A stretch of 64,000 nt of DNA from an uncultured Acidobacteriota bacterium (lineage in GTDB: Bacteria; Acidobacteriota; Terriglobia; Bryobacterales; Bryobacteraceae): NCBI GenBank assembly GCA_963832965.1, contig CAWHVW010000002.1, positions 623,073 to 687,072 on the forward strand, given 5' to 3'. Position numbers and translations under genes: made by a program. The notes below the pieces were generated by a model. The model ran no database searches, was not told where the DNA came from, and worked only from the letters and a program-made list of their open reading frames with translations. Positions 19,735 to 46,683 of the stretch are shown in pieces (position 1 is the first letter of the stretch; the number at the start of each line of letters is the position of its first letter).

Positions 19735-19760
19735 GTGTCATCAGTGGAAACGAGGTTCCT

Positions 19761-29027: not shown

Positions 29028-32000
29028 GTGGAGTCATTTTGCATGCCAACAAGAGTAACGTTCGCCGATAGTGTTGACGTTGACGGAAACGCCCGTTCGC
29101 GGGCCGGCGAGGTAACCACCGTCCGGGAGCTGATTGACCGGATGGCCGCGACGCAACCCGACGTCGCATTCCTCCTCAGCCCGGAAACGGGACAGGTGCA
29201 CACGTTTCTGGAATTGCGGAGACAGGCGAGAATCATCTGCTCCGGCCTTCTTCAGTCGGGTCTGGAGCAAGGCGACAAAGTCGCCTTTATGCTCGATAAC
29301 GGGCTGTTCACGGCGCAATTGTTCCTGGGGGCGATGTACGGCGGCTTCGTGGTGGTGCCGTTGAATGTCCGCGCCGGCGTAGCGCAATTATCGTTCGTGC
29401 TGGACCACTGCGACGCGAAGGCGGTGTTTGTCGGGGATGCGTACAACGATCTGGCGAAAGACGCCATGGCCGGCGTCCACCATGCCCTGAAGGTGATTCC
29501 CGCGGATGTGGACGGCCTCGGCGAGTTGGCCGCGACGCCGATCGTTTCCGAGTTGCCCGTGCCTGCCCCGGGCGACGAAGCGATGCTGATGTACACGTCG
29601 GGCAGTGTCGGCCAGCCAAAGTCGGCGATTCATACGCATAGCACCGTTATCGCCCACGGCAGAAATTCCATGCGTTCGCACCAGCTCACCTCCACGGATC
29701 GTTCCCTGCTGGTGCTGCCGCTCTATCACATCAACGCGGAGTGCGTGACCCTGGTTCCCACGCTGCTGAGCGGCGGCTCGGTGGTGGTGCCCCATCGCTT
29801 CAGCGTCAGCCAGTTCTGGGACTGGCTGGACGAATACCGCTGCACCTGGTCGGCGGTGGTGCCGACCATCGTTTCGCAACTTCTCGATTGGAAAGATCCT
29901 CGGGAAGGCCAGCGTCAGGAGGCATTCGCGCGCATCCGCTTCCTGCGATCCTCTTCGGCCCCGTTGTCTCCCTCGCAACATCGCGAGTTTCTCGACAAAT
30001 TCGATCTGCTGCTCATTCAGGCCATGGGATCGAGCGAGGCCGGCAACATTTTCTCCAATCCGCAGGCGCCGGGCGAGAACAAAATCGGATCTCCGGGGCT
30101 CGCCTGGGGTTTTGAAACCCGAATCGTCAACCGCGAGGGAGCTGACGTAGCGTCCGGAGAATCCGGCGAAGTGCTCATTCGCGGGGACGCCATGATGCGC
30201 GGTTACTACAAGGATCCCGAAGGCACCGCTGCCGTGCTGGATCAGGACGGCTGGTTTCACACCGGTGACCTCGCCTACCAGGACGGGGACGGCTACTTCT
30301 TTGTCGTCGGCCGCTCCAAGGAACTGATCATCAAAGGCGGAGTCAACATCGCCCCTCGTCAGATCGACGACGTTCTGGAGTCGCATCCGGCCATTCTGGA
30401 GGCGGCGGCGGTAGGCATCCCCGATCGTCATCTGGGGGAGGATCTGGTCGCCTTCGTCGTGTTGCGCGCTGGCGTTCAGGCCAGCGAAGGCGAGTTGCTG
30501 TCCTTCTGCGAGCGCCGCCTGGGGCCGTTTAAAACCCCCACGCGGATTCACTTCGCCAAAGGTCTGCCGAAGGGCCCGTCCGGTAAAGTGCAGCGGCTTC
30601 GCCTCACCGATACGGCGGCACAGCAATCGGCCACTGTCGCGCCGGCCGCGCCTGAAGACGGAAACGTCTCCGCGCCTGACGGTACGGTAAAGATCGACGG
30701 ATTGCCCGATGTCGAGCCCATCATCGCGGCCATCTGGGCGGATCTTCTGGGACAACCCGAGATCGATTCACACACCAATTTCTTCGCGCTGGGCGGGCAC
30801 TCTCTGCTGGCGATCCAATGCCTGTCGCGTCTTCGAGAGAAACTGCCGGTCGGGCTTTCGCTGTCGGATTTCTTCGACCATGGCACTATCGCGCAGTTGG
30901 CGGAACTGGTCAGACAGCGGCTGCATGCGGCTGGCCGCGCCAACGGCAAGGCTTCCGGGGGGCAATCGGCCGCGGGTTCCATTCCGCTCGGACTTCAGCC
31001 GATTGCGCAGCGGGGCCGGGCGAATTCCTGCCCGCTCAGTCCGGGCCAGCGGAGCCTCTGGTTCATGGAGCAGTTGCATCCCGGATTGCCGGTCAATTGC
31101 GAGTCCGAGGCCGTTCGGTTGCGAGGAGACCTTGATGCCGGCGCGCTGGAGCAGGCGCTCAACGCGATTATCGACCGGCACGAAGTCCTGAGATCCACCA
31201 TCCAGGTCATCGACGAGCCGGCGCAGGTGGCCCACCCGCACTGGCCGCTCAAGCTCAAGATCATCGACCTGAGCCAGTTGGATAAGGATCGGCGCGCCGC
31301 CGAAGTCGAGCGCCTGCTGATCGACGAACCGCGCCGCCTGTATCATCTGGAGGCCGAGCCGGGCATCCGCGCGACCCTGCTGCGTCTCGCTCCCCGCGAG
31401 CACGTCTTCATTCTGATGATGCATCACATTGTTTGCGATTGGTCATCGGAAGGCGTCTTGTGGCGGGAGCTGGCTTCCCTGTATCGCAGCTTCCTGCATG
31501 GGGAACCGTCCGCGCTGCCGCCTTTGCCGGTGCAGCACGGAGACTACGCCGCCTGGCGCAGACAGCAGCTTGCGGAGACCGGTTTTCCCGAGGACCTCGC
31601 CTATTGGACGGAGAATCTGCGCGCGGCGCCGAGCCTATTGGAAATGCCCACGGACCGTCCCCGTCCGGGCGCGCTCACTTATCGCGGCGCCCGCAAACGA
31701 TTCCGGCTGGACCCCGCTCTATCCGAAGCGCTGCGCAATTGCAGCCGCCAGGAAAAGACCAGTCTGTTTACCGTTTTCTCCGCCGCGCTGAACGTGCTGC
31801 TTCACCGCTACACCGGCAGCGAAGACATTCTCGTCGGAATTCCCGTCGCCGACCGCGACCGGCCGGAGCTGCAGTCGGTGATCGGCTTTCTGCTGCAGAC
31901 TCATGTTCTGCGCACCAGACTTTCCCCGGAAGAGACGTTTCGCGACCTGCTCGCTCGCGTTCAGAAAAGCGCCCTTGCGCTCTACAGCCACCGGGCCGCG

Positions 32001-34265
32001 CCCTTCGACCAGGTGGTTGGCGCGGTGCAGCCCGAACGCAACCTGAGTTATTCGCCGCTGTTTCAGGTGATGCTCAACTGGCGCGATCGCGAGCAGGAGT
32101 TGTCCTTCATCGGCCTGGAAGGGCTCGAGGTGGAGTCCATGCTGGCCGAAAGCAGAACCTCGAAATTCGATCTCACGCTGCTGATCACCGAAGGATGGGA
32201 CGAGATTCTGGTCGAATTCGAATACAGCACCGACCTCTTCGACGAAGATCGTATGGCGCGCATGTTCGGCCACTATCGGACGCTGCTGGAGGCGGTGGCG
32301 GCCGATCCCGGCCTGCGCGTTCGCGAGTTCCCGCTATTGACCGCCAGCGAACGCCGGCAACTCCTGGAAGTGTGGAACCCGCCGGCCACCGGTTATCCGG
32401 CGGACAAGCCGCTCACGCAGTTGCTGGAAGAGCAGGTGGAGCGCACGCCGCACGCCACCGCGGTGGAGTTCGATGGCCGGCAATTAACGTATTCCGAGTT
32501 GAACGAGCGCAGCACTCAGTTTGCCCGGCACCTGCGAACCCTCGGCGTCGGCCCCGAAGTCCTGGCGGCCGTTTATATCGAACGTTCGCTCGAAATGGTG
32601 ATCGCCTTACTGGGGATTCTCAAGGCCGGAGGCGCTTACCTGCCCGTCGACCTGGCTTTCCCCCGCGAGCGCATCGCATTTATGCTCGACGATGCCCAGC
32701 CTCGGGTGTTGGTAACGGTCACGAAGCTGCTGGCGGATCTTCCGCCAAACCAATCCCAGGTGGTCTGCGTCGATGACTTTCCGGCTGGGAGAGACGAGCC
32801 GGCGTCCCGGCCGTCCGAGTCTCGCGATCTCGCTTACCTGCTTTACACCTCCGGTTCCACGGGGAAGCCCAAGGGCGTTGAAATCTGCCATCGGGCGCTG
32901 GTCAACTTCCTGCATTCCATGCGCGCCACCCCGGGTATGGACGCGCGCGACACGCTGCTCTCGGTCACCTCGCTGTCCTTCGACATCTTTGGACTGGAGA
33001 TCTGGCTGCCGCTGACCGTGGGGGCCAAAGTGGTGATCGTGCCGCCGGAAGTGGCCAAGGATGGACGGGAACTCGCGGCGGCGATTGAGCGGTGCGGTGC
33101 AACGGTAATGCAAGCCACTCCGGCCACCTGGCGGTTGTTGCTCGATGCCGGATGGGAAGGCCGTCCCAACCTGAAAATCCTCTGCGGCGGTGAGGCTTGG
33201 CCGCCCCAGCTGGCCGAGCAGTTGCAGCCCAGGTGCGCCTCTCTGTGGAACATGTACGGGCCTACCGAGACCACCATCTGGTCGGCGGTTCACCGGGTAG
33301 AGACGGGGAAGCCGATTCTGGTGGGACGTCCCATCGCCAACACCCGCTTCTACGTCGTGGACGCGCACATGCAACCGGCGCCGGCCGGAGTCCCTGGTGA
33401 ATTGTTGATCGGGGGCGACGGGCTGGCACGCGGTTACTGGAACCGTCCGGAACTGACCGCCGAAAAGTTCATTCCCGATCCTTTCAGCCCGGACGCCGCA
33501 GCGCGTCTGTACCGCACCGGCGACCTGGTGCGCTATCTCGCGGATGGCAACGTGGAATTCCTGGGGCGCATCGATCACCAGGTAAAGCTTCGCGGTTTTC
33601 GGATTGAGCTGGGAGAGATTGAGAGCGTGTTGCGCAGCCACCCGGGCGTGAAGGAAGCAGTCGCGGCGGTTCCCGCCGAGGCCGAGAAGCGGCTGGTGGC
33701 GTATGTGGTGTTGGCGGGGGAGCCGGCCTGCACCAGCGCCGAATTGCGGGATTACCTCCGGCGGAAACTGCCCGATTATATGGTTCCGGCGGCTTTCGTC
33801 AGCATGAAGGCGTTGCCGTTGACTCCGAACGGCAAAGTAGATCGCAAAGCTCTTCCGCTTCCAGGAGCGGACACCGCGGCAGAGCTGAGCGGCGCGTACG
33901 TGGCCCCGGACAGCGATGCCGAACAGAAGATCGCCGCTATCTGGAAAGAAGTGCTGGGAGTGGCCAGAGTCGGCAGAAACAATAACTTCTTTGACCTCGG
34001 CGGAACTTCTCTCTTGTTGATGGGAGTGCACAGCCGCTTGCGGCAAGCCTTCGGCAATGACATCACCATGGTGGATTTGTTCCGGCACACCACCGTTCGA
34101 GCGCTCGCGCAGCACCTGCTGGGCCAGGCGGAATCGAGTGCGCCGGACAAGGTCGAAACGCAAAGTGAGATGCGCAAAGAGCTGGCCCGCCGCAATCGCC
34201 AGTTGCGCCGGCGCCAGGGAAAAGAATTGGTAGCGGAGTCTTCTGAGCGTGCACCAGGAAACTGA
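29028..34265 (+). CDS. Hybrid loading/NRPS protein: acyl-AMP ligase - T - C - A(Gly) - T
   Basis: 1745 aa. Ligase MYTSGSVGQPKSAIHTH..GWFHTGDLAY. T1 FFALGGHSLL (Ser codon 30801..30803). C domain HHIVCD (31422..31439). A domain LYTSGSTGKPKGV, FDIFGLE, NMYGPTETT, QVKLRG. T2 FFDLGGTSLL (Ser 34008..34010). Hand-derived specificity code D-I-L-Q-L-G-M-I-W-K. Confidence 0.9.
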   Translation: MESFCMPTRVTFADSVDVDGNARSRAGEVTTVRELIDRMAATQPDVAFLLSPETGQVHTFLELRRQARIICSGLLQSGLEQGDKVAFMLDNGLFTAQLFLGAMYGGFVVVPLNVRAGVAQLSFVLDHCDAKAVFVGDAYNDLAKDAMAGVHHALKVIPADVDGLGELAATPIVSELPVPAPGDEAMLMYTSGSVGQPKSAIHTHSTVIAHGRNSMRSHQLTSTDRSLLVLPLYHINAECVTLVPTLLSGGSVVVPHRFSVSQFWDWLDEYRCTWSAVVPTIVSQLLDWKDPREGQRQEAFARIRFLRSSSAPLSPSQHREFLDKFDLLLIQAMGSSEAGNIFSNPQAPGENKIGSPGLAWGFETRIVNREGADVASGESGEVLIRGDAMMRGYYKDPEGTAAVLDQDGWFHTGDLAYQDGDGYFFVVGRSKELIIKGGVNIAPRQIDDVLESHPAILEAAAVGIPDRHLGEDLVAFVVLRAGVQASEGELLSFCERRLGPFKTPTRIHFAKGLPKGPSGKVQRLRLTDTAAQQSATVAPAAPEDGNVSAPDGTVKIDGLPDVEPIIAAIWADLLGQPEIDSHTNFFALGGHSLLAIQCLSRLREKLPVGLSLSDFFDHGTIAQLAELVRQRLHAAGRANGKASGGQSAAGSIPLGLQPIAQRGRANSCPLSPGQRSLWFMEQLHPGLPVNCESEAVRLRGDLDAGALEQALNAIIDRHEVLRSTIQVIDEPAQVAHPHWPLKLKIIDLSQLDKDRRAAEVERLLIDEPRRLYHLEAEPGIRATLLRLAPREHVFILMMHHIVCDWSSEGVLWRELASLYRSFLHGEPSALPPLPVQHGDYAAWRRQQLAETGFPEDLAYWTENLRAAPSLLEMPTDRPRPGALTYRGARKRFRLDPALSEALRNCSRQEKTSLFTVFSAALNVLLHRYTGSEDILVGIPVADRDRPELQSVIGFLLQTHVLRTRLSPEETFRDLLARVQKSALALYSHRAAPFDQVVGAVQPERNLSYSPLFQVMLNWRDREQELSFIGLEGLEVESMLAESRTSKFDLTLLITEGWDEILVEFEYSTDLFDEDRMARMFGHYRTLLEAVAADPGLRVREFPLLTASERRQLLEVWNPPATGYPADKPLTQLLEEQVERTPHATAVEFDGRQLTYSELNERSTQFARHLRTLGVGPEVLAAVYIERSLEMVIALLGILKAGGAYLPVDLAFPRERIAFMLDDAQPRVLVTVTKLLADLPPNQSQVVCVDDFPAGRDEPASRPSESRDLAYLLYTSGSTGKPKGVEICHRALVNFLHSMRATPGMDARDTLLSVTSLSFDIFGLEIWLPLTVGAKVVIVPPEVAKDGRELAAAIERCGATVMQATPATWRLLLDAGWEGRPNLKILCGGEAWPPQLAEQLQPRCASLWNMYGPTETTIWSAVHRVETGKPILVGRPIANTRFYVVDAHMQPAPAGVPGELLIGGDGLARGYWNRPELTAEKFIPDPFSPDAAARLYRTGDLVRYLADGNVEFLGRIDHQVKLRGFRIELGEIESVLRSHPGVKEAVAAVPAEAEKRLVAYVVLAGEPACTSAELRDYLRRKLPDYMVPAAFVSMKALPLTPNGKVDRKALPLPGADTAAELSGAYVAPDSDAEQKIAAIWKEVLGVARVGRNNNFFDLGGTSLLLMGVHSRLRQAFGNDITMVDLFRHTTVRALAQHLLGQAESSAPDKVETQSEMRKELARRNRQLRRRQGKELVAESSERAPGN

Positions 34266-37200
34266 CCAGCTCGACAGAATTGCCGTGATCGGCATGGCCG
34301 GGCGCTTTCCGGGCGCTCCCGACGTCGATCGCTTCTGGCAGAACCTGTCTGCCGGCGTGGAGTCTGTCACCACGCTCACGGATGAGCAATTGCTGTCTTC
34401 CGGCGTGGAACCGAGCCTGGTTCAGTCGCCGAACTACGTCAAAGCGGGCTTGCCGCTGGACGGCGCGGAGTTCTTCGACGCCGAATTCTTTGGCTATACG
34501 CCGCGCGAGGCGGAGCTGACGGATCCGCAACACCGCGTGTTTCTGGAGTGCGCGTGGCAGGCTATGGAAGATGCCGGCTATGACCCGGACCGGACCCCGC
34601 TGAGAATCGGAGTGTACGCGGGCGCGGGCACGAATTCATACTTCCAGAACAACCTCGCCGGTGATCCGCATCTGATGAAGTCGTTGAACCTTCTTCAACG
34701 GTTGATGGTAACCGACAACGACTATCTGTCCACGCGCGTCTCCTATAAGCTGAACCTCAAGGGACCCGGCCTGACCGTGCAGACGGCGTGTTCCACCTCG
34801 CTGGTGGCCACTCATCTCGCCTGCCAGAGCCTGCTCAATGGAGAGTGTGACATCGCCCTGGCCGGAGGCGTTTCGGTCCGCTTTCCACAGACCGCGGGCT
34901 ACCTGTACCAGGAAGGTTCGCCATTATCGGCCGATGGCCGATGCCGCGCTTTCGACGCTTCCGCGCAAGGCATGATGCCCGGCAGCGGAGCTGGCGTGGT
35001 CGTTCTCAAGCGGCTCGCCGACGCGCTGAGGGATGGAGATTCCGTGCGCGCCGTGATCCTCGGGTCGGCCATCAATAACGATGGCGCCGCCAAAATCGGC
35101 TACACCGCGCCCAGTGTCGATGGCCAGGCGGGCGCCATTGAGGAAGCTCAGGCGCTGGCCGGCGTCAGCGCCGATGAGATCACCTACATCGAAGCTCATG
35201 GCACCGGCACCGTTTTGGGCGACCCCATTGAGATCGCGGGCCTGACCAAGGCGTTTCGCAGAAGCAGCCAGGAGCGTGGTTCATGCGCCATCGGCTCGGT
35301 CAAAACCAACATTGGTCACCTGGGCGCCGCGGCGGGCATCGCCGGGTTCATCAAGGTGGTGCTGGCGCTGCAGAAACGGATGCTCCCGCCGAGCCTGAAT
35401 TTCAAGCGCCCCAATCCCGCCATCGATTTTGCCAACAGTCCCTTTTTCGTGCAGCAGACGCTGGAAGCCTGGCGGCCGGCGAATGAACGGCGGGTTGCTG
35501 GCATCAGCTCCTTCGGTATTGGCGGAACGAACGCCCATGCGGTCCTCGAAGAGGCGCCGGCTACTGAAAGTTCCGGGCCGTCGAGGCCGTGGCAGCTCCT
35601 GTTGTTGTCGGCTCGCACCAATACGGCGCTGGATGCGGCGACCAGGAACCTCGCTGCGCGCCTGCGGGACGACCCTTCCGTGAGCCTCGCCGATGTTGCC
35701 TACACGCTGCAGACCGGCCGCAAGGGTTTTCACCGCCGGCGCATGCTGGTGTGCCACGGCCGCGAGGATGCCATTGCCGCGCTGGAGTCCCTGGATCCGA
35801 GGCGAGTCTCGACACAATCTCAGGAGCCGGACGAAAGAGACGTCGTGTTCATGTTTCCTGGCCAGGGCGCCCAGTACGCCAACATGAGCCTGGAGCTATA
35901 CCGGACGGAATCGGAGTTTCAGGAACACGTCGATCGTTGTTGCGAATCGCTAAAGCCTCATCTTTCCCTCGATCTGCGGGACATCCTGTATCCGGGCGAC
36001 CAGCAGGTCGAGAGCGCTTCGCAGACGCTGAAGCAGACCCGGATCGCTCAGCCGGCTCTTTTCGTCATCGAATACGCCCTGGCAAAACTCCTGATGTCAT
36101 GGGGTGTGAAACCGGCCGCCATGGTGGGCCACAGCATCGGAGAATATGTAGCGGCCTGTCTCGCCGGAGTGTTCTCTCTCGAAGACGCCTTGTCCCTGGT
36201 GGCTGCCCGAGGCCGCCTGATGCAGAGCCTGCCCGAAGGTTCCATGCTGGCCGTTTCCCTTTCGGAGGAAGCGATCGCGCCGCTGTTAAATGGAAAGCTT
36301 TCCGTCGCCGCGGTGAACAGTCCCTCCCTGTGCGTCGTTTCGGGAGAAATGGAGGCCGTCAGCGATCTGCAGCGGGCGCTGTCGGCAAGGGACGTGGCCT
36401 GCACCCTGCTGCATACTTCGCACGCGTTCCATTCGAAGATGATGGATCCCATCCTGGTCAGCTTCACTCAGGAAGTAGAGCGGGCGGCCATTCATCCTCC
36501 GAAGATTCCGATTCTTTCCAGCGTCACCGGCGCCTGGATACAACCCGCCGAGATGGCCACGCCGGGTTATTGGGCCAGAAACCTGCGCCAGACTGTACGC
36601 TTCTCCGATTGCGTTCGCGAGCTGATGAACGATCCCGCCAGAGTCCTGCTGGAGGTCGGCCCTGGTACGACGCTGGGCACACTGGCCAAACAGCATCCGG
36701 GTGAAGCGGGCAAGCCCATTGTCCTGTCCACCATCCGCCATCCTCGCGAGCAGACCTCGGATGTCGCATTCCTCCTGAACACGCTGGGACGGCTCTGGCT
36801 TGCCAACATAGATATAGACTGGTCCGGATTTTATAAGAACGAAAGCCGCCATCGCATCTCCTTGCCCGCGTATCCCTTCGAACGGCAGCGCTACTGTATC
36901 GAGCCGTCGCCACAGGCGCATGCCACCGGGGCAGCCCCTCGGCTGCCGGCAAGAAAGTCCGACATCGCCGACTGGTTCTACGTCCCTTCATGGAAGCGAG
37001 CGGAACTTCCCGAACAAGGCGGCAGCGGCAAATCGCCGGGCCATACATTACTATTCCTCGACGACGGCGGATTTGGCCTCGGCCTGGCTGCGCTCCTGCA
37101 AGCCGCCGGACAGCGCGTCACGGTCGTCCAGCCGGCAACAGCATTCCGGCGCCATGGTGAGGACTCCTTCACCGTCAATCCCGGCGCGACGGAAGACTAT

Positions 37201-38838
37201 GATGCGTTGTGGGGCGAACTCGGAGCGGGTGGGCAATCGCCGGACACCATTGTTCATCTGTGGTCTCTCACCGGGGAAGAGAAGCCGTCGATCGCCCAAT
37301 CCTGGGAGCTTTTCCGCAAAGTCGGATTTAACAGTCTGCTGTTTCTGACTCAGGCCATTGGCAAGCATCCTACCCGCGGAGTCGTCCAAATCAAGGTCAT
37401 ATCCAACCGTCTCCACGCAGTGACCGGCGATGAAGTCCTGTCTCCCGCCAAGGCAATCCTTCTTGGTCCGTGCCGGGTCATTCCGCAGGAACATCCCAAT
37501 ATCCAGTGCACCAGCGTCGATCTGGGAGAAAGCCGGCCGGTCGACGAATATGCCTCATTGCTTGCGAAGGAGCTGAACGCCAGAACGACGGATGCCGTTG
37601 TCGCCTACCGTGGTACGCATCGCTGGGTACCGGCGTTCGAACACGCGAAGTTAAGCAAGAGCGACAGCTTCAAACCACGCCTGAGAGAACAAGGCGTCTA
37701 TCTCATCACCGGTGGCCTCGGCGGCATTGGTCTGGTGCTGGCGGAATACCTCGCCGAATCGGCGCACGCGCGGCTCGTTCTGATTTCGCGAACCGGCCTG
37801 CCGGACCGGGAACAATGGCCGCACTGGCTGGAGACGCACGGCGACAAGGATGACGTAAGTCAAAAGATTCGCAAGGTGCAGTCGATCGAGCGGCACGGCG
37901 CAACGGTGCTCATCCTCAAGGCCGATGTTGCCGACAACAATCAGATGAAGGCGGCGATCGCGCAGGCGCATGATCGGTTCGGAGAGATTCATGGTGTGAT
38001 CCACGCCGCCGGCACGGCCAGCTTCGGCACAATACGGCAGAAAGACCCCGCGGCCGCGGCAAGCGTCATGGCGCCGAAGGTGCTGGGGACCGCGGTGCTC
38101 GCTGAGCTGCTTGGCGGGACGAAACTGGATTGGTTCGTCCTCTGCTCCTCTCTCGCGGCGGATTTGGGCGGTATCGGGCGGGTCGATTATTCCTCCGCCA
38201 ATGCCTTTCTGAATGCGTACGCGCAGAAGTATCACTCGGAACAGAATGTCATTGCAATCAACTGGTGCGCCTGGCAGGAAGTTGGGATGGCCCTCAGCAC
38301 AGCGGTGCCGGCGGAGCTTCAGGAACAGAGAGAACGGAATCTGCTTCTGGGAATTGTCCCCGAACAAGGGAAGGAAGCGTTTGCCAGAATTATCGGCAGG
38401 TCTCATCCCCAGGTTCTGGTTTCGTTGCAGGACCTCACCGGGTTAGCGCCGGAGCGCGATGAGGGTGCTGCAGTCCAGGAGACGAAGCCTCCCGCGGCTA
38501 AGCCGGCCCACCCGCGTCCCGACCTCTCCAGCGACTATGTCGTTCCCGGAAACGCCACCGAGCAGACCATCGCCGATATCTGGCAGGAGCTTCTCGGCGT
38601 GGCCAATGTCGGTATCCACGACAACTTTTTCGAGTTAGGCGGACACTCCTTGCTGGCAACCGGGCTGGTGGCCCGCTTGAAGAGCGAACTGCCCATCGAG
38701 CTCTCCATGGCCAGCCTTTTCGAAAACCCCACCGTGCATTTGCTTAGCGAGATGGTGCTGCAGGCGGGGCGCGAAGAACCGTCATTCGACCAGAGCCGCA
38801 GCCGGGGACAGATGCGCAAACAGCGCCTCCGCGGATAA
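34249..38838 (+). CDS. Type I PKS module: KS-AT(malonyl)-KR-ACP
   Basis: 1529 aa. KS TACSTSL (Cys 34789..34791), EAHGTGT, NIGHLG. AT FPGQGAQY, GHSIGEY (Ser 36133..36135), HAFHS. KR YLITGGLGGIGL, YSSANAF. ACP LGGHSLL (Ser 38647..38649). GTG start overlaps the NRPS end by 17 nt. Confidence 0.9.
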   Translation: MHQETDQLDRIAVIGMAGRFPGAPDVDRFWQNLSAGVESVTTLTDEQLLSSGVEPSLVQSPNYVKAGLPLDGAEFFDAEFFGYTPREAELTDPQHRVFLECAWQAMEDAGYDPDRTPLRIGVYAGAGTNSYFQNNLAGDPHLMKSLNLLQRLMVTDNDYLSTRVSYKLNLKGPGLTVQTACSTSLVATHLACQSLLNGECDIALAGGVSVRFPQTAGYLYQEGSPLSADGRCRAFDASAQGMMPGSGAGVVVLKRLADALRDGDSVRAVILGSAINNDGAAKIGYTAPSVDGQAGAIEEAQALAGVSADEITYIEAHGTGTVLGDPIEIAGLTKAFRRSSQERGSCAIGSVKTNIGHLGAAAGIAGFIKVVLALQKRMLPPSLNFKRPNPAIDFANSPFFVQQTLEAWRPANERRVAGISSFGIGGTNAHAVLEEAPATESSGPSRPWQLLLLSARTNTALDAATRNLAARLRDDPSVSLADVAYTLQTGRKGFHRRRMLVCHGREDAIAALESLDPRRVSTQSQEPDERDVVFMFPGQGAQYANMSLELYRTESEFQEHVDRCCESLKPHLSLDLRDILYPGDQQVESASQTLKQTRIAQPALFVIEYALAKLLMSWGVKPAAMVGHSIGEYVAACLAGVFSLEDALSLVAARGRLMQSLPEGSMLAVSLSEEAIAPLLNGKLSVAAVNSPSLCVVSGEMEAVSDLQRALSARDVACTLLHTSHAFHSKMMDPILVSFTQEVERAAIHPPKIPILSSVTGAWIQPAEMATPGYWARNLRQTVRFSDCVRELMNDPARVLLEVGPGTTLGTLAKQHPGEAGKPIVLSTIRHPREQTSDVAFLLNTLGRLWLANIDIDWSGFYKNESRHRISLPAYPFERQRYCIEPSPQAHATGAAPRLPARKSDIADWFYVPSWKRAELPEQGGSGKSPGHTLLFLDDGGFGLGLAALLQAAGQRVTVVQPATAFRRHGEDSFTVNPGATEDYDALWGELGAGGQSPDTIVHLWSLTGEEKPSIAQSWELFRKVGFNSLLFLTQAIGKHPTRGVVQIKVISNRLHAVTGDEVLSPAKAILLGPCRVIPQEHPNIQCTSVDLGESRPVDEYASLLAKELNARTTDAVVAYRGTHRWVPAFEHAKLSKSDSFKPRLREQGVYLITGGLGGIGLVLAEYLAESAHARLVLISRTGLPDREQWPHWLETHGDKDDVSQKIRKVQSIERHGATVLILKADVADNNQMKAAIAQAHDRFGEIHGVIHAAGTASFGTIRQKDPAAAASVMAPKVLGTAVLAELLGGTKLDWFVLCSSLAADLGGIGRVDYSSANAFLNAYAQKYHSEQNVIAINWCAWQEVGMALSTAVPAELQEQRERNLLLGIVPEQGKEAFARIIGRSHPQVLVSLQDLTGLAPERDEGAAVQETKPPAAKPAHPRPDLSSDYVVPGNATEQTIADIWQELLGVANVGIHDNFFELGGHSLLATGLVARLKSELPIELSMASLFENPTVHLLSEMVLQAGREEPSFDQSRSRGQMRKQRLRG

Positions 38839-38861
38839 CCGGCGGGAAACAGGCAAGCGCC

Positions 38862-41800
38862 ATGAAGAATTCAGGAACCTTGGACGGATTGAGCGGTTCG
38901 GAGATCGCGGTGATCGGCATGGCCGGCCGCTTCGCCGGCGCGCCGGACGTCGAAACGTTCTGGACAAATCTGCGGGATGGCGTGGACTCCGTCAGCTTTT
39001 TCACCGACGAGCAGTTGCTCGCCGCGGGCGTCGATCCCGAAGCGCTGCGGAATCCCCGTTACGTCAAAGCCGGTTTCGTGCTCGATGGCATTGACTTGTT
39101 CGACGCCGCCTTCTTCGGATTCAGCCCGAGAGGCGCCGCGGCGATGGACCCGCAACATCGTCTGTTCCTCGAGTGCGTGTGGGAGGCCATCGAAACGGCC
39201 GGGTACGACGCCGAGAGTTACAAGGGCGCCATCAGCGTGTTTGCCGGATCGAGCATGAGCAGTTATCTGTTCAACAACCTCTATGCCAACCCCGAGGCAT
39301 TTGAGCTCGCCGGCATGTATCAGAGCTTTCTTTCCAACAGTCAGGATTCTCTGGCCACGCTCATCGCCTATAAGCTGAATCTGAAAGGCGCCTGCTACAC
39401 CGTTGGGACCTTCTGCTCCACGTCCCTGGTCGCCGTCCACCTGGCATCCCAAAGCCTGCTGAACTTCGAATGCGACATGGCCGTGGCCGGGGGCGTCAGG
39501 GTCGCGGTGCCGCAGAATACCGGCTACTGGTATCAGGATGGTGGCATCGTTTCTCCCGACGGGCATTGCCGGCCGTTTGACGCCAGCGCGCAGGGAGCGG
39601 TCTTCGGCAACGGCGTTGGGGCGGTAGTGCTGAAAAGGCTGAAGGATGCTTTAGCCGATGGCGATTCCATTCAGGCGGTGATCCTCGGCTCCGCCACCAA
39701 CAACGACGGTTCGCTCAAGGTGAGTTACACGGCGCCCAGCGTCGTCGGCCAGTCCGAGGTCATCGTCGAAGCGCTGTCCAACGCCGAGATCCCTCCGGAT
39801 ACCATCAGCTACGTGGAAACCCATGGCACGGGAACCGCCCTGGGGGATCCCACGGAAGTGTCCGCGCTGACGCGCGCGTTTCGCAGCGGGACGCAGAAGA
39901 AAGGTATCTGTGCGATTGGTTCGTTGAAGGCCAACATCGGACACGTGGACGCGGCGGCCGGCGTGGCCGGTCTGATCAAGACCGTGCTCGCGCTCAAGCA
40001 CCAGCAGATTCCTCCCAGCCTGAATTTCCATCAGCCAAACACCAACATCGATTTTGACAACAGCCCGTTCTACGTCAACTCGAAACTTTCCGAATGGAAA
40101 AGCGATGGCCGTCCCCGCCGCGCCGGGGTGAGCTCATTTGGCATCGGAGGCACCAACGCCCATGTAATCCTCCAGGAGGCCCCTCAGGGGGAACCCTCCG
40201 GTCCATCCCGGCCACACCAGCTCCTGGTTCTGTCCGCCAAAACGAATTCCGCCCTGGATGCGGCCACCCGGAATCTGGCTGCGTTTCTGAAGGGCCATCC
40301 GGATCTGAACCTCGCCGATGCCGCCTTTACGCTGCAGACGGGCCGGCGCGCCTTTAACCATCGCCGGGCCATCGTTTGCCACGATGTTGAAGATGCCGTC
40401 TCCGTGCTCGAATCGGCGGATTCCAAACGCATGCCCTCGGCCAACCAGGACAAGAGGAATCCCGGCGTCACCTTCATGTTCTCCGGACAGGGGGCCCAGT
40501 ATGTTGGCATGGGGTCGGAGCTGTATCGAACCGAGCCGGCGTTTCGCGAGGAAGTCGATCGCTGCTCGGAAATACTGAAATCGCATCTCTCGCTCGATAT
40601 CAGGGACGTCCTCTATCCCGATGACGCGGACGCCGAAGAGACCGCTCAAAGGCTGAATCAAACATCCTTGACCCAGCCGGCGTTATTCGTCGTCGAATAC
40701 GCGCTGGCAAAACTGTGGATGTCATGGGGCGTGGTTCCCGCCGATATGGTGGGCCACAGCATCGGAGAATATGTTGCCGCCTGCCTGGCGGGCGTGTTCT
40801 CCCTGGAAGACGCGCTCGCCCTGGTTGCCGCCAGGGGGCGGTTGATGCAAAGCCTCCCCGGTGGCAGCATGCTGGCGGTGCGCCTTGCGGAAACGGCGGT
40901 TCGGCCCTTCCTGGAAGATCACGAACTGTCTCTGGCAGCCATCAACAGTCCTTCTTTGTGCGCCGTGTCGGGGGCGGGAAAAGCGGTCGAAGATTTCCGG
41001 GAGCGTCTGTCCGAAAAGAACGTGGATTGCCGCCGCCTGCAAACTTCCCACGCGTTCCATTCCAGCATGATGGATCCGGTCATCGGCGCATTCACCGATG
41101 AGGTCAGGCGGACCAGAAGGAACCCTCCCCGAATCCCCTTCGTCTCGAATGTGACGGGAACATGGATCACCGCGGACGAAGCGACGGCGCCTGATTATTG
41201 GGCGAAGCACCTTCGCCATACCGTCCGATTCTCCGACGGAGTTCGCGAGTTGTTGAAAGAGCCCCACAGAGTTTTTCTGGAGGTCGGCCCCGGCAACACC
41301 CTCAGCACCCTGACCAAACAACATCTGAACGGCTCGGATCACACCACCGTACTTTCCTCCATCCGCCACCCGCACGAGCAGGAATCGGATGGCGCCTTCA
41401 TATTGAACACGCTCGGCCGGCTCTGGTTGTCCGGCGTGGACGTGGATTGGTCCGGGTTTCACAAGAAGGAGAAACGCCATCGCGTGCTGGTGCCCACATA
41501 TCCATTTGAGCGGAGGCGGTATTGGATCGATCCGGTGGAACCGGTGCGAGGTTATTTCGCCGCCCGCGTGGGCCTGGGCCGGAAGCAGGACAGTCTGCCT
41601 CGCCCCGCTGGCGCGCAGATCGTTGAGGAGGAACTCGCTCCCAGGGACGCAGAGCTGCAAAGCGACTACGTGGCCCCGCAAGCCGGTGCCGAAGAAACGC
41701 TCGCGGGAGTGTGGCGAAAAGTACTCGGCATCGACAAAATCGGCGTGCACGACAATTATTTCGACCTGGGCGGCGATTCCGTGCTGGCGGTTCATTTGTT

Positions 41801-42782
41801 TGCCGAGATCGAGAAGGCATTCCAAACCAAACTGCCCCTCGCCACGCTTTTCGAGGCCCCCACGATCAGTGCGATCGCCCGGATTCTCCGTCGTGAAGCT
41901 CCCGCATCCGGCTGGTCGCCGCTGGTGGCAATTCAGCCGGCCGGCTCCCGCCCTCCCTTCTTTTGCATTCACGGGGCCGGAGGAGGAGTGCTCCTCTATC
42001 GGGACCTTTCGCGGCGCCTCGGTTCCGATCAGCCGTTTTACGGTCTGCAGGCTCAGGGGCAGGATGGCAGTTGCTCCCCGCTCACCAGCATTGAGGACAT
42101 GGCTGCTCTTTACGTGAAGGAAATCCAAAGGGTGCGGCCGCACGGACCGTATTTCCTCGGCGGCTACTGTGCGGGCGGAACCATTGCCTATGAGGTCGCG
42201 CAGCGGCTTCAGGCGGCGGGAGAAGAGGTTGGCCTGCTGGCCATGTTCGATACGTCGAACTGGTGCAAAGTGCCTCGTCTCTCGGCCGGAAGCAAAGGCT
42301 ATCACTTCCTGCAGAAACTGTGGTTTCATGGCGCCAATTTCCTGGCTCTTGATTCGGAAGGAAAGGGCAGGTTCCTTCTGGAGAAGGCCAGAGAACTGCG
42401 CAGCCGGATGCCCATGTGGCGGGCGATGCTGCTGGCGAAGTTCGGCGGGCGCTCGGGCGCCGTCACCTCCGAATCCCGCGTGTTGGGGGAGATCTGGCAG
42501 GCCAATGACCGGGCCTGCGCAAATTATGTTCCCCAACCGTATCCCGGCACGGTCACGGACTTTCGCCCGAGGACGCAGTACCGTGCCCTCAGCAGGCCAG
42601 ACGTGAAATGGGATCAGTTGGCGAAGGGCGGCCAGGACATTGTTGTCCTGCCTGTCTATCCCGCCGGCATGCTGGTGGAGCCCTTCGTCGCGGACCTTGC
42701 CGGCGCTCTCCGAGCGACCATCGACCGGTCTCTTCACAACACACGAATCGCAAATACCGCGGGCCGCAACAACGTCCCGTAA
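38862..42782 (+). CDS. Type I PKS module: KS-AT(malonyl)-ACP-TE (TE with Cys at the nucleophile position)
   Basis: 1306 aa. KS TFCSTSL (Cys 39414..39416), ETHGTGT, NIGHVD. AT FSGQGAQY, GHSIGEY (Ser 40758..40760), HAFHS. ACP LGGDSVL (Ser 41778..41780). TE FFCIHGAGGG, LGGYCAGG (TGT 42168..42170). Confidence 0.9.
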   Translation: MKNSGTLDGLSGSEIAVIGMAGRFAGAPDVETFWTNLRDGVDSVSFFTDEQLLAAGVDPEALRNPRYVKAGFVLDGIDLFDAAFFGFSPRGAAAMDPQHRLFLECVWEAIETAGYDAESYKGAISVFAGSSMSSYLFNNLYANPEAFELAGMYQSFLSNSQDSLATLIAYKLNLKGACYTVGTFCSTSLVAVHLASQSLLNFECDMAVAGGVRVAVPQNTGYWYQDGGIVSPDGHCRPFDASAQGAVFGNGVGAVVLKRLKDALADGDSIQAVILGSATNNDGSLKVSYTAPSVVGQSEVIVEALSNAEIPPDTISYVETHGTGTALGDPTEVSALTRAFRSGTQKKGICAIGSLKANIGHVDAAAGVAGLIKTVLALKHQQIPPSLNFHQPNTNIDFDNSPFYVNSKLSEWKSDGRPRRAGVSSFGIGGTNAHVILQEAPQGEPSGPSRPHQLLVLSAKTNSALDAATRNLAAFLKGHPDLNLADAAFTLQTGRRAFNHRRAIVCHDVEDAVSVLESADSKRMPSANQDKRNPGVTFMFSGQGAQYVGMGSELYRTEPAFREEVDRCSEILKSHLSLDIRDVLYPDDADAEETAQRLNQTSLTQPALFVVEYALAKLWMSWGVVPADMVGHSIGEYVAACLAGVFSLEDALALVAARGRLMQSLPGGSMLAVRLAETAVRPFLEDHELSLAAINSPSLCAVSGAGKAVEDFRERLSEKNVDCRRLQTSHAFHSSMMDPVIGAFTDEVRRTRRNPPRIPFVSNVTGTWITADEATAPDYWAKHLRHTVRFSDGVRELLKEPHRVFLEVGPGNTLSTLTKQHLNGSDHTTVLSSIRHPHEQESDGAFILNTLGRLWLSGVDVDWSGFHKKEKRHRVLVPTYPFERRRYWIDPVEPVRGYFAARVGLGRKQDSLPRPAGAQIVEEELAPRDAELQSDYVAPQAGAEETLAGVWRKVLGIDKIGVHDNYFDLGGDSVLAVHLFAEIEKAFQTKLPLATLFEAPTISAIARILRREAPASGWSPLVAIQPAGSRPPFFCIHGAGGGVLLYRDLSRRLGSDQPFYGLQAQGQDGSCSPLTSIEDMAALYVKEIQRVRPHGPYFLGGYCAGGTIAYEVAQRLQAAGEEVGLLAMFDTSNWCKVPRLSAGSKGYHFLQKLWFHGANFLALDSEGKGRFLLEKARELRSRMPMWRAMLLAKFGGRSGAVTSESRVLGEIWQANDRACANYVPQPYPGTVTDFRPRTQYRALSRPDVKWDQLAKGGQDIVVLPVYPAGMLVEPFVADLAGALRATIDRSLHNTRIANTAGRNNVP

Positions 42783-42843: not shown

Positions 42844-44001
42844 ATGAGCGACCGCATATATATTTTCGACACGACGTTGCGAGACGGGGAACAATCCCCC
42901 GGCTGCAGTATGAACGTCTCCGAAAAGCTGCTGATGGCCCACAAACTGGTGGAACTCGGCGTGGACATCCTGGAGGCCGGCTTCCCCATTGCATCGGAGG
43001 GTGATTTCGAATCCGTGCACGCGATCGGAAGCGAATTTCCGGACACGCCGGTGGCGGCCATGGCCCGTTGCTGCGCTCTCGATATCGAGCGCGCCGCTAA
43101 AGCGCTTTCCAGCGCGCGGCGGCCGCGCATTCACATTGTTCTCGGCACCAGCGACATTCACCTGAAATACAAGCTGAAGAAGACGCGGCCGCAGATACTC
43201 GTGGACGCCGTCGCGGGCGTGGAACTGGCGCGGCGTTACGTCGATGATGTCGAGTTCTGCACCGAGGACGGCTCCCGCACCGAACCCGCCTTCCTGGAAG
43301 AGATCTCCAGAGCGGCGGTGCAGGCGGGCGCCCGCACCGTGAACATCGCGGATACCGTGGGCTACTCCGCGCCGCCCGAATATGGAGCGCTCATCGCGAG
43401 GGTGGTTGGAGCGATCGGCGATTCCGCCGTTGTCAGCGCGCATTGCCATAACGATCTGGGACTGGCCGTGGCCAACTCCATCGCGGCCGTGCAAGCGGGC
43501 GCGCGCCAGGTGGAATGCACCGTGAACGGTATCGGCGAACGCGCGGGCAACTGCGCGCTGGAAGAAATCGTCATGGTTCTTAAGAGCCGCGCCGATCTCT
43601 TCCCGTTCCACACCGCGGTGAACACCGAGCACCTCTATTCCGCCAGCCAGTTGCTCAGCTCGCTGATTACCTTCGGCCCGCAGCCGAACAAGGCCATCGT
43701 GGGCCGCAACGCCTTCGCGCATGAGGCGGGAATCCATCAGGACGGCTACCTGAAGGAGCGGTCCACCTACGAAATTATCGACCCTCGCTCGGTCGGCGTG
43801 CTCGAAGGGAAACTGGTGCTGGGCAAGCACAGCGGCCGTCACGCCATCGCCGAGCGCTGCAAGAGCCTGGGCCACAACCTGAACAGGCAGGAACTGGACC
43901 AGCTTTATCTTCGCTTCATGGCGGTCGCCGACCAGCGGAAAAACGGTCTCATGGACGAAGAAATCCTGGCCCTGATCCGCGAAGGTCAGAAGGCCGCCTA
44001 G
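42844..44001 (+). CDS. 2-isopropylmalate/homocitrate/citramalate synthase-family aldolase (HMGL-like), short form without the LeuA C-terminal regulatory domain
   Basis: 385 aa. IFDTTLRDGEQSPG, HCHNDLGLAVANS, GIGERAGN. It ends about 120 aa earlier than canonical LeuA. Confidence 0.75.
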   Translation: MSDRIYIFDTTLRDGEQSPGCSMNVSEKLLMAHKLVELGVDILEAGFPIASEGDFESVHAIGSEFPDTPVAAMARCCALDIERAAKALSSARRPRIHIVLGTSDIHLKYKLKKTRPQILVDAVAGVELARRYVDDVEFCTEDGSRTEPAFLEEISRAAVQAGARTVNIADTVGYSAPPEYGALIARVVGAIGDSAVVSAHCHNDLGLAVANSIAAVQAGARQVECTVNGIGERAGNCALEEIVMVLKSRADLFPFHTAVNTEHLYSASQLLSSLITFGPQPNKAIVGRNAFAHEAGIHQDGYLKERSTYEIIDPRSVGVLEGKLVLGKHSGRHAIAERCKSLGHNLNRQELDQLYLRFMAVADQRKNGLMDEEILALIREGQKAA

Positions 44002-45469: not shown

Positions 45470-46554
45470 TGTCCTGTCTCCGAAGTCCGCTGACAAAAGC
45501 GTGCAACCGACGTCAGGATTTCATCGGCCGTCTTCGTCCAGACAAAGGGCCGGGGCGATTCGTTGGTGAGCGATAAATATCTTTTGATGGCCGCTTCCAA
45601 CTCGCGAATGCTGCGGTGAACGCCACGGCGAAGCTGTTTCTCAGTAAGAGCGGCGAACCACCGTTCGACCAGATTGATCCAGGAGGCGCTGGTCGGCGTG
45701 AAGTGCACGTGGAAACGGGGACGTTTGGCCAGCCATGCGCGGATGGCCGCGGTTTTGTGAGTGCCGTAGTTGTCCAGAATCAAATGGACGTCCAGCGACG
45801 CGGGCACTGCCTGCTCGATGGTGTCGAGAAACTTGCGGAATTCCACACTGCGGTGCCGGCGATGGCAGGCGCCGATCACCGTTCCAGTCTGCACATCGAG
45901 CGCGGCAAACAGGGACGTGGTGCCGTGGCGCTTGTAATCGTGACTGCGGCGCTCGGCCTGTCCGGGACGCATCGGCAACAGCGGTTGCGTCCGGTCCAGC
46001 GCCTGAATCTGCGACTTCTCATCGACGCACAGGACCAGTGCGCGGTCCGGAGGATTCATGTACAGTCCAACGATGTCGCGAACCTTATCAATGAACAGCG
46101 GGTCTTTGGAAAGTTTGAACGTCTCGCTGCGATGCGGTTGCAGGGCGAACGCTCGCCAGATGCGGCTGACGGTGCTTCGGCTGAGTCCGCACTGCTTCGC
46201 CAGCGAGCGCGTACTCCAATGCGTGGCGTCACGCGGCAGCGATTCCAGAGTCATGGCCAGCACTCGCTCCACCTCCGCGTCGCTGACCTTGCGCGGTGTC
46301 CCAGGACGAGGCTCATCGAGCAATCCATCGAGGCGCTTTTCGACAAAGCGCGCCCGCCACTTTCCGACCATCTGTTTAGTGACCCGAAACTGATCGGCCA
46401 CCTGGGTGTTGGTCTTGCCGCCGGCACAGGCCAGAATGATCTTCGCACGCAAGGCCAGCGCCTGAGCCGACTTTGGCCGCCGCGCCCACTCCAGCAGGGA
46501 CCGTCGCTCCTCCGGTGTGATCACCAACTCGGGAAGCGGGCGTCCAATTCGCAT
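45466..46554 (-). CDS. IS630-family DDE transposase
   Basis: 362 aa with N-terminal HTH ([23 protein letters not shown]) and DDE_3-like core ([14 protein letters not shown]...[11 protein letters not shown]...[15 protein letters not shown]). Confidence 0.9.
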
Positions 46555-46627: not shown

Positions 46628-46628
46628 G

Positions 46629-46648: not shown

Positions 46649-46683
46649 AAAACCGCTTGTTTACACGCGCGGCTCGGAAACGC

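Follow-up and report, generated by a model that had tools for sequence, protein, structure and literature searches.

The window analysed here is the whole of a 64,000-nucleotide stretch of DNA from an uncultured Acidobacteriota bacterium (GCA_963832965.1, contig CAWHVW010000002.1, positions 623,073-687,072 of the forward strand). It carries an exopolysaccharide (EPS) locus resembling those of exosortase systems, and inside that locus lies a three-gene assembly line that joins a nonribosomal peptide synthetase (NRPS) to two type I polyketide synthase (PKS) modules. The line directly follows a gene for a predicted fusion of a CE4 (NodB-type) deacetylase and a GT4 glycosyltransferase, and, judged from the sequences of its relatives, it is a recurrent, optional and swappable module at this fixed site. 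The CE4-GT4 pairing, seen again in many Acidobacteria of soil, suggests that the product decorates or anchors a polysaccharide. Our preferred reading, to which we assign a probability of roughly 45%, is that an acyl-glycine diketide would be passed by the unusual thioesterase-like (TE) domain at the end of the line to a sugar amine freed by the CE4 domain, by analogy with known acylation systems. The genes and domains are as follows (T, thiolation; C, condensation; A, adenylation; KS, ketosynthase; AT, acyltransferase; KR, ketoreductase; ACP, acyl carrier protein).

26844..28961, + strand: predicted CE4 (NodB-type) deacetylase-GT4 fusion, 705 aa; CE4 at residues ~1-310, GT4 at residues ~320-705
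29028..34265, + strand: NRPS gene, 1745 aa; probable start ATG 29043
29115-30629, + strand: acyl-CoA-ligase-like loading domain of the NRPS (Pfam)
30723-30911, + strand: NRPS T1 (Pfam)
31023-32366, + strand: NRPS C domain, with HHIVCD at 31422-31439 (residue 799)
32424-33854, + strand: NRPS A domain, predicted for Gly, code DILQLGMIWK
33921-34118, + strand: NRPS T2 (Pfam)
34249..38838, + strand: PKS module 1 gene, KS-AT-KR-ACP, 1529 aa
34273-35403, + strand: KS of PKS module 1
35845-36681, + strand: AT of PKS module 1, GHSIGE/HAFH
37693-38280, + strand: KR of PKS module 1, YSSAN, without LDD and without Trp
38563-38754, + strand: ACP of PKS module 1
38862..42782, + strand: PKS module 2 gene, KS-AT-ACP-TE, 1306 aa
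38901-40031, + strand: KS of PKS module 2
40470-41375, + strand: AT of PKS module 2, GHSIGE/HAFH
41697-41885, + strand: ACP of PKS module 2
41955-42731, + strand: non-canonical TE of PKS module 2
42168-42170, + strand: TE nucleophile Cys1103, motif GYCAGG
42654-42662, + strand: V1265-Y-P of the TE, where G-D-H is expected

The original prediction described three packed, co-directional open reading frames (ORFs) of 1745, 1529 and 1306 aa, with a 17-nt overlap between genes 1 and 2 and a 23-nt gap between genes 2 and 3, and read from motifs the domain order ligase-T-C-A-T / KS-AT-KR-ACP / KS-AT-ACP-TE. The ORF coordinates agree with the former and Pfam with the latter: gene 1 matches AMP-binding with AMP-binding_C, PP-binding, Condensation, AMP-binding with AMP-binding_C and PP-binding; gene 2 matches ketoacyl-synt, Acyl_transf_1, KR and PP-binding; and gene 3 matches ketoacyl-synt, Acyl_transf_1, PP-binding and Thioesterase. 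The E-values of these matches range from 1e-15 to 1e-160, so they are not due to chance. The GC content is 0.60-0.64 across the three ORFs and flat at their junctions. Using L-numbers (L001, L086 and so on) as labels for loci that hold relatives of the NRPS or of the CE4-GT4 gene, the 17-nt overlap is kept in the gene calls of L001, L084 and L086. We conclude that the three genes form a complete, translationally coupled, three-module hybrid NRPS / type I PKS line. The true NRPS start is probably ATG 29043, 15 nt later than 29028. Because this codon is preceded by a Shine-Dalgarno-like GGTGGAG, and the database copy of the protein has 1740 aa, the gap to the CE4-GT4 gene is more likely 81 nt than the 66 nt given at first.

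The motifs on which the earlier chain prediction relied are all present in the translation. The C domain has HHIVCD, both ATs have GHSIGE and HAFH and are of malonyl type, and the KR has YSSAN and neither the LDD motif nor the A-type Trp. Both KS domains carry the Cys-His-His set, with active-site motifs TACSTS and TFCSTS, and the Ser is found in all four carrier domains (GGHS/GGTS/GGDS). The A-domain code was read again, after the earlier hand alignment, by anchoring on the GrsA motifs (FDxxxxE, the TLPPT position, xxGGEA, xYGPTExxxx and GKxDR, in GrsA numbering). The corresponding anchors FDIFGLE, TVMQATP, ILCGGEA, NMYGPTETTIW and NGKVDRK gave the same D-I-L-Q-L-G-M-I-W-K. We take codes of the type DILQLG[LM]IWK to specify glycine, and the A domain is predicted to be glycine-activating. 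Its best single-domain match among PDB structures is 5u89 (446 bits), presumably the glycine module of a DhbF homologue. The ligase-like domain would load a carboxylic acid on T1, and the C domain would join this acid to the glycine held on T2 by the A domain. The KS-AT-KR-ACP module would then add a malonate and reduce it, and the KS-AT-ACP module would add a second malonate without reduction. The chain should be a 6-(acylamino)-5-hydroxy-3-oxohexanoyl-S-ACP, so that the 5-hydroxy-3-oxo structure proposed earlier holds on domains and motifs.

The domain that ends the line departs from the textbook. The Pfam Thioesterase profile matches its N-terminal half only (positions 2-103 of 226). The nucleophile is a cysteine and an Asp is present (FDTS), but V-Y-P replaces G-D-H, and the canonical Ser/Cys-Asp-His triad is incomplete; the earlier TE call has to be corrected to a non-canonical TE. 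The orthologous KS-AT-ACP-TE genes of L084 and L086, 78-80% identical, keep both GGYC[LM]GG and LPVYP[AG]GML. Among 68 TE-bearing NRPS relatives the nucleophile is Cys in 40 and Ser in 28. In 11 of the 68 the G-D-H is replaced by [VIAG][YF][PR], and all 11 have the Cys and a conserved His in the lid, which in the window is His1156 of WFHGAN (FH motif). We considered whether the domain is decayed and rejected this, since Cys and V-Y-P are kept in orthologues and mark a discrete group among the relatives. Relocation of the catalytic His to the lid is a possible explanation of this arrangement. Members of the group with Cys and no G-D-H include P0007, P0027, P0029, P0051 and P0089.

The fusion encoded directly upstream was examined by motif, profile and fold. 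Pfam GT4 families match its C-terminal half, while Polysacc_deac_1 remains below threshold in the N-terminal half. Aligned with 21 homologues, the N-terminal part shows invariant THDVE, H121-x3-H125, R156-S-P and T-H-P-D (H251), corresponding to NodB motifs 1, 2, 3 and 5. An AlphaFold model (pLDDT 73, pTM 0.77) was searched with Foldseek, and the top 24 matches were CE4 or related deacetylases, led by 3rxz (E 5e-8) and followed by 2cc0, PdaC, PgdA and ArnD. By motifs and model the product of 26844-28961 is predicted to be a true CE4-GT4 fusion, and the label it had been given was right. By sequence, the stand-alone CE4-like protein had no match in the PDB and only one below threshold in Pfam; it was the fold search that decided for CE4.

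The relatives of this gene reveal a recurrent junction. At E <= 1e-10 the CE4-GT4 family comprises 6888 matches, hundreds of them 64-68% identical over the full length, and many are named PgdA/CDA1 deacetylases by JGI. We took a census of gene context in 80 metagenomic loci together with L086, L087, L088 and L089, which form 80 clusters at 95% nucleotide identity; downstream NRPS/PKS domains were counted at tblastn E <= 1e-10 with at least 50% of the domain covered, and all counts are lower bounds, as the contigs are short. Same-strand NRPS/PKS domains lie downstream in 22 of the 52 non-redundant clusters that have at least 3 kb of downstream sequence, and in 15 of these 22 the distance to the first such domain is no more than 3.5 kb. 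Requiring 8 kb or more of downstream sequence leaves 32 clusters, 16 of them with domains of this kind. A megasynthase at one and the same junction in half of the CE4-GT4 neighbourhoods is not expected of scattered secondary-metabolite clusters, an expectation set by judgement. The original prediction had placed the line inside an exosortase-type EPS locus; the flanking genes agree, and the census shows that the arrangement is not a one-off.

What follows the junction varies from locus to locus. In L087, whose CE4-GT4 protein is 76% identical to that of the window and which shares Wzy, AsnB and GT2 genes with it, the next genes encode an unknown protein and Wza, and there is no megasynthase. 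L088 (68%; shared GT2, AsnB, chain-length determinant, kinase and dehydrogenase) continues with an acyl-CoA dehydrogenase, an NRPS 44% identical to that of the window and a KS-AT-ACP-TE protein. L089 (67%; shared Wzx, hexapeptide transferase, CE4 and Wzy) continues with an acyl-CoA dehydrogenase and a single A-T-TE protein with a Cys TE. L086 (67% overall, 71% in the CE4 and 64% in the GT4 part; shared UDP-glucose dehydrogenase and Rml genes) has the full three-gene line. The acyl-CoA-dehydrogenase-like gene precedes the line in both of these loci (region 13349-16996 of L089 and 12992-14134 of L088). The A-T-TE protein of L089 has an insert of ~300 aa between the A core and T, and its combination of A, T and acyl-CoA dehydrogenase presumably recalls the formation of pyrrolyl carrier proteins.

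The NRPS was also traced in its own right. At E <= 1e-50 it matches 787 proteins, the best of which, at 57-68% identity, belong to metagenome-assembled genomes of Terriglobia, Binataceae and the like; the closest cyanobacterial loci reach only 36-49% identity to the line. The family has two forms, one of ~1720 aa as in the window and one of ~1990 aa with a C-terminal TE. The exact code DILQLGMIWK is the commonest (75 of 119 relatives), with ~25 more of DILQLG type and a few that are Ser-, Val- or Thr-like. All PKS-carrying relatives with upstream sequence adjoin sugar genes. By tblastn, 7 of 8 PKS-type loci have a CE4-type homologue next to the NRPS, against none of four TE-only loci (L004, L005, L006 and L011). 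The CE4-GT4 homologue is fused in L086 and split in L001, L002, L009, L084 and L085. The order of genes in the most informative loci is as follows.

L084: CE4, small ORF, AMP-binding, short-chain dehydrogenase/reductase (SDR), GT2, FemAB-like, CE4-like 450-aa protein, 2-isopropylmalate-synthase-like (IPMS-like), three-gene line
L086: Rml genes, UDP-glucose dehydrogenase, phosphopantetheinyl transferase, fused CE4-GT4, three-gene line, second TE-ending NRPS
L002: Wzy, GT2s, CE4, dehydrogenase, GT4, CE4-like protein, IPMS-like, NRPS, PKS genes with an extra KR-ACP
L170: UDP-glucose dehydrogenase, 874-aa GT4 protein, NRPS-TE, Wzz, ParA-like kinase, regulator, Exosortase_EpsH, later a small ORF and AMP-binding
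L171: NRPS-TE, then small ORF, AMP-binding, SDR, AMP-binding, pyridoxal-phosphate (PLP) decarboxylase

The layouts of L001, L009 and L085 are similar to those of the other PKS-type loci. The second NRPS of L086 belongs to the same family; it is a TE-ending protein of 1989 aa at 23274-24679, so that both forms stand in tandem. A different setting is seen in the island of L011, where only a Wzx-like (MOP) transporter, the NRPS-TE and an IPMS-like gene lie among housekeeping genes. In L004 and L006 (cultured Terracidiphilus gabretensis S55) the NRPS-TE adjoins an IPMS-like gene, and EPS genes were not detected. A small ORF (possibly an ACP), a ~440-470-aa AMP-binding protein and an SDR lie beside the NRPS at 1-1320 in L001, 795-3133 in L084 and 17993-20412 in L171. 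These sets, with the PLP decarboxylase in L171, match the exosortase A-associated accessory set named in NCBIfam.

If the chain is built as predicted, where does it go? We propose that the GT4 domain would put an N-acetyl-hexosamine-type sugar on a lipid-linked repeat unit or primer, and that the CE4 domain would strip the acetyl group from this sugar. The terminal domain, with its Cys nucleophile and no canonical His, would act as a transferase and not as a hydrolase, and deliver the chain to the freed amine. The outcome would be an acylated polysaccharide or a glycolipid primer or anchor, following the NodB/NodA/NodFE logic of Nod factors. Transfer to a sugar amine is favoured because the constant partner of the line is a deacetylase-glycosyltransferase fusion, and because a thiol nucleophile without the usual general-base His is better suited to an amine acceptor than to hydrolysis. 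A plain acyl-Gly NRPS of L170, the gene of which lies directly behind a GT4 gene, ends in the same type of TE. The product of this NRPS would have no hydroxyl for lactonisation, which together with the GT4 adjacency also favours transfer.

Several known systems resemble parts of the proposal. In the synthesis of Nod factors, NodB is a CE4 deacetylase, NodA an N-acyltransferase, and NodF and NodE a dedicated ACP and KS. The window resembles this system in that a CE4 deacetylase gene stands beside a dedicated carrier-protein system building a special acyl chain, and the proposed order of events, de-N-acetylation of a hexosamine and then acylation of the freed amine, is the same. It differs in having no NodA homologue, the terminal TE-like domain being the proposed transferase; in a chain that comes from a modular NRPS-PKS and contains glycine; and in the acceptor, an EPS repeat unit or primer as opposed to a chitin oligomer. 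That a PKS TE can act as an acyltransferase to a sugar is known from Pks13, which transfers mycolate to trehalose, and DltA/DltC, acting on teichoic acids, provide a precedent for the delivery of carrier-bound groups to sugars. Like Pks13 (ACP-KS-AT-ACP-TE), the second PKS protein ends in KS-AT-ACP-TE, and the solved structures related to the window TE include that of Pks13. Unlike it, the window TE has a Cys and no canonical His where the Pks13 TE has Ser-Asp-His; the substrates differ too, and with 647 bits on the Pks13 model the protein stays short of the 2100 bits required for the family. Upstream of the TE, the line follows a familiar plan. Lipopeptide/polyketide hybrids with acyl-ligase-ACP loading and a PKS-extended Gly module are known from mycosubtilin-type loading and from malyngamide- and andrimid-type Gly-malonate chemistry; they share with the window a carrier loaded by an acyl-AMP-forming ligase, a C-A(Gly)-T module after it and chain extension by KS-AT modules specific for malonyl units. 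To our knowledge, none of those hybrid lines is encoded behind a CE4-GT4 gene within a Wzx/Wzy EPS locus.

Several observations weigh against transfer to the glycan. The steps after chain assembly are inferred, and lactonisation offers a delta-hydroxy-beta-keto thioester another way off the line. CE4-GT4 genes greatly outnumber the NRPS and do without it in half or more of the loci, including the closest one, L087. Some members of the NRPS family have extra NRPS modules and A codes switched to Ser, Val or Thr, a variation like that of natural products, and for the TE-ending relatives outside EPS loci the product is either free or has another acceptor. The initiating phosphoglycosyl transferase of the window is frame-shifted, with Bac_transf positions 18-64 in ORF 4403-5209 and positions 65-178 in ORF 5109-5495. 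A scan for promoters and terminators over 28.5-48.4 kb was uninformative on co-transcription, giving fewer terminator-like sites than shuffled sequence and weak promoter-like sites. The co-occurrence with EPS genes that had been predicted for the line is therefore partial: the CE4-GT4 junction recurs, but the line is absent from L087, and TE-ending relatives form islands without EPS genes. In our opinion, the absence from a close EPS locus and the relatives outside EPS loci indicate an accessory module and not the absence of a link.

The main rival has the product leaving the cell as a free small molecule, either an N-acyl-glycine-derived 4-hydroxy-5,6-dihydro-2-pyranone or its open acid form, which could serve as a surfactant, signal or antibiotic, co-regulated with the matrix and not bonded to the polysaccharide; the line would in this resemble the N-acyl amino acid synthases near PEP-CTERM/exosortase genes. 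We consider this somewhat unlikely. The 5-OH of the predicted chain would be well placed for six-ring lactonisation, the NRPS family diversifies as secondary-metabolite clusters do, and its TE-ending members occur as two- or three-gene islands, one of them beside a Wzx-like MOP transporter without other sugar genes. A genetic link of N-acyl amino acid synthases to PEP-CTERM/exosortase loci is also described in papers citing Craig et al. (2011). However, a free molecule leaves unexplained both the fixed site directly behind CE4-GT4 in 22 of 52 loci and the CE4-type gene kept beside PKS-type lines (7 of 8 loci), and a TE that hydrolyses or cyclises would be expected to have the canonical His, which is missing from the terminal domain. 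We regard as very unlikely the other alternative, in which the line is an unrelated secondary-metabolite island in a plastic chromosomal region and its closeness to the EPS genes has no functional meaning. It would fit with the intact IS630 element at the downstream edge, the tRNA genes near the border of the region, the lack of the line in the locus with the closest CE4-GT4 gene, and the intact state of the megasynthase genes where several EPS genes of the window are frame-shifted. It does not fit with the flat GC content across the junctions, the absence of a strong terminator between the genes, or the same junction (CE4-GT4, then a same-strand carrier-protein line, with short gaps) in many non-redundant loci. 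Transfer to the sugar amine remains the reading we prefer. It is tempting to extend it to the scale of the polymer, with a Nod-factor-like lipo- or acyl-EPS in many soil Acidobacteria and swappable lines setting a serotype-like matrix identity, which we hold to be rather improbable in this broad form. In such a scheme the CE4-GT4 protein would lay bare an amine of the lipid-linked repeat unit, the lines, from A-T-TE proteins up to full NRPS-PKS, would hand their chains over, and the handover would be the work of a new transferase derived from thioesterases, with Cys as its nucleophile and the His relocated.

A separate question is the acid with which the chain starts. The original prediction treated the loading domain as an acyl-ligase for a lipid, and this has to be regarded as unproven. 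Its identity as a fatty acyl-AMP ligase was not borne out: the best NCBIfam and PDB matches are CoA ligases. The domain scores above the cut-off of the long-chain fatty-acid-CoA ligase model PRK06187 (586 vs 476 bits), and its nearest PDB structures are oxalate-CoA ligases (251 bits), feruloyl/fatty-acyl-CoA synthetases (232), FadD13 (210) and malonyl-CoA synthetase (198). With oxalate, ferulate, fatty acids and malonate all among the substrates of these ligases, the sequence does not allow the loaded acid to be named. A hint may come from the gene that follows the line:

42844..44001, + strand: truncated 2-isopropylmalate-synthase-like gene, 385 aa, HMGL-like and HCS_D2

The IPMS-like protein exceeds the cut-off of NF002086 (574 vs 532 bits) and matches PDB 3rmj at 377 bits; it covers profile positions 4-384 of 516, and the C-terminal regulatory (leucine-binding) domain is absent. 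A homologue (53-75% identity) adjoins the NRPS in L002, L084, L004, L006 and L011. Candidates for the starter are a fatty acid, an alkylmalate-type product of the IPMS-like enzyme and a branched acid supplied through it. An alkylmalate-type or leucine-pathway starter stays open because of this recurrent, regulation-free partner and the similarity of the loading domain to oxalate and malonate ligases. One reading is that the IPMS-like enzyme makes a 2-alkylmalate-type hydroxy-dicarboxylic acid which the ligase activates, so that the product would be a polar alkylmalyl-glycyl polyketide and not a lipid. It concerns the starter only, is compatible with either release route, and in our view lies on the unlikely side. 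It would account for the pairing of NRPS and IPMS-like gene in the window and these five loci, all three island-type loci among them, and for the missing regulatory domain; oxalate-CoA ligases are the best solved relatives of the loading domain, and by eye the ligase domain is well conserved across the NRPS family, consistent with one common starter. Yet the domain passes the long-chain fatty-acid model, the score differences among its PDB matches are small, no IPMS-like gene lies within 10 kb in L001, L009, L085, L086, L170 and L171, and a feedback-insensitive LeuA copy could merely raise the supply of branched-chain (iso-acyl) precursors.

The further surroundings of the line in the window include the following genes.

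19674-21683, + strand: AsnB-type amidotransferase
21703-22485, + strand: HfsH-like CE4 deacetylase
22418-24214, + strand: FkbH-domain protein
24375-25892, + strand: chain-length determinant (TIGR03007, 273 bits vs cut-off 279)
25935-26747, + strand: tyrosine autokinase (TIGR01007, 123 bits vs cut-off 108)
44111..45469, + strand: NDP-sugar dehydrogenase, UDP-ManNAc / UDP-GlcNAc 6-dehydrogenase-like (TIGR03026, 417 bits vs cut-off 190)
45463..46631, - strand: IS630-family insertion sequence (transposase NF033545, 284 bits)
53193-53888, + strand: PEP-CTERM cargo protein, with the canonical tail VPEPSTLLLIATGLIGLALGRRRPR and weak PEP-CTERM family matches
54036-55073, + strand: XrtA-associated-type ATPase

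The chain-length determinant and the tyrosine autokinase form a polysaccharide co-polymerase pair, and GT2 and GT4 genes lie upstream of the line on the same strand. The Wzx candidate (10918-12507) has a weak MatE match of 30 bits and is 47% identical to the Polysacc_synt gene of L089; the Wzy candidate (15244-16629) is weak and below cut-off. The FkbH-domain protein, of the glyceryl-ACP-loading type, has ~285 N-terminal residues of unknown function. Its homologues recur in the EPS loci L085 (753-2423), L101, L109, L129, L130 and L148, either upstream as in the window or directly before the C-A domains of a downstream NRPS, and are also found in loci without any NRPS. Further upstream, a GFO_IDH_MocA gene is split between 5520-5753 and 5750-6496, and in ORF 7625-9070 the C-terminal part of DegT runs in frame into a CE4 domain. 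The splits in the EPS genes at 4403-9070 are due either to indels in the assembly or to pseudogene formation; the megasynthase genes, 13.7 kb in all, are free of frame breaks. A GFO-type oxidoreductase, a hexapeptide acyltransferase and a DegT aminotransferase (5520-9070) occur in the same window as the NDP-N-acetylhexosamine dehydrogenase (44111-45469), a set that we take to resemble WbpB/WbpD/WbpE/WbpA for 2,3-diacetamido uronic acids. By this analogy it would supply the EPS with an extra acylatable amino group.

Downstream, where sugar and matrix genes had been predicted to follow, the next gene is the IPMS-like one, which is no sugar gene, and the dehydrogenase is followed by an IS630 element in place of further EPS genes. 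NDP-sugar dehydrogenases also stand beside the line in L002, L009, L085, L086, L088, L170 and L171. The IS630 element is intact, with a transposase ORF at 45466-46554 on the minus strand and 31-nt terminal inverted repeats that are 94% complementary, and, inserted at the extreme end of the dehydrogenase gene, it provides the stop codon of that gene with its left repeat. A plus-strand ORF at 45616-46893 was rejected as a gene: it has no family match, an Arg/Ala-rich translation and lies antisense to the transposase. A minus-strand block at 48935-52489, divergent from the PEP-CTERM protein gene, encodes an UpxY/RfaH/LoaP-like NusG paralogue, a sigma-54 response regulator (PEP_resp_reg-like, below cut-off) and a histidine kinase. 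The UpxY/RfaH-like protein could control the long plus-strand array by antitermination. The Rfam scan of the window returned two tRNAs only, tRNA-Thr(tgt) and tRNA-Gly(tcc) at 59386-59543; with the housekeeping genes IscS and HscB (60270-63056) they mark the right border of the EPS region. No ORF of the window that was scanned matches Exosortase_EpsH/XrtA, and the gene may lie outside the 64 kb. All XrtA-specific families score below their cut-offs: the determinant at 273/279 bits, the kinase at 131/231, the amidotransferase at 552/817, the ATPase at 225/324 and the response regulator at 334/503. By this resemblance the locus is of exosortase type, apparently related to the XrtA system and not a curated member of it.

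The line falls among known kinds of system, hybrid NRPS-PKS lines and the carrier-protein accessory genes of exosortase EPS loci. The window resembles the exosortase A-associated acyl-CoA ligase/ACP/PLP-decarboxylase genes in placing carrier-dependent adenylating enzymes in PEP-CTERM/exosortase EPS loci. It differs in having a multi-module NRPS-PKS and no stand-alone ligase. The original prediction had the line filling the niche of the stand-alone ligase and ACP genes. This does not hold, as several relatives have both: the sets of small ORF, AMP-binding protein, SDR and, in part, decarboxylase co-occur with the NRPS in L001, L084, L170 and L171, and neither system replaces the other. Those accessory genes had been attributed to Haft et al. 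(2006), the main text of which does not contain the words acyl, ligase, carrier or AMP; the correlated families listed there are GT1, polysaccharide deacetylase, chain-length determinant and sugar transferase. The link of an adenylating ligase to exosortase is documented in the name of the NCBIfam family TIGR03098, on which the Gly A domain of the window scores 426 bits, below the cut-off of 592, so it is no member. The N-acyl amino acid synthases of PEP-CTERM loci share with the line an N-acyl amino acid product and the link to exosortase-type EPS loci. They are single acyl-ACP-dependent acyltransferases, unlike the ATP-dependent NRPS of the window, in which the C domain is predicted to make the acyl-amino-acid bond and two malonates extend the acyl-glycine; no window ORF scanned with NCBIfam or Pfam matches their family. 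Our searches of the literature on exosortases with PKS/NRPS and on acidobacterial NRPS-PKS with EPS found no description of this junction, and neither its recurrence nor the conserved TE group with Cys and no canonical His was found there.

Few groups of bacteria are as abundant in soil as the Acidobacteria, whose exopolysaccharides influence how soil aggregates and how well desiccation is tolerated. The window and its relatives provide a concrete case for the role of adenylating and carrier-protein genes in exosortase-type EPS loci, one that offers a fixed genomic junction, a predictable chain and an unusual terminal domain. Even without attachment of the chain, the locus would represent an orphan family of acyl-glycine polyketides that is widespread and co-inherited with matrix genes. 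Attachment to the glycan, if it does take place, would mean that acylated polysaccharides can be made by a new route and that thioesterase-like domains have a new role.

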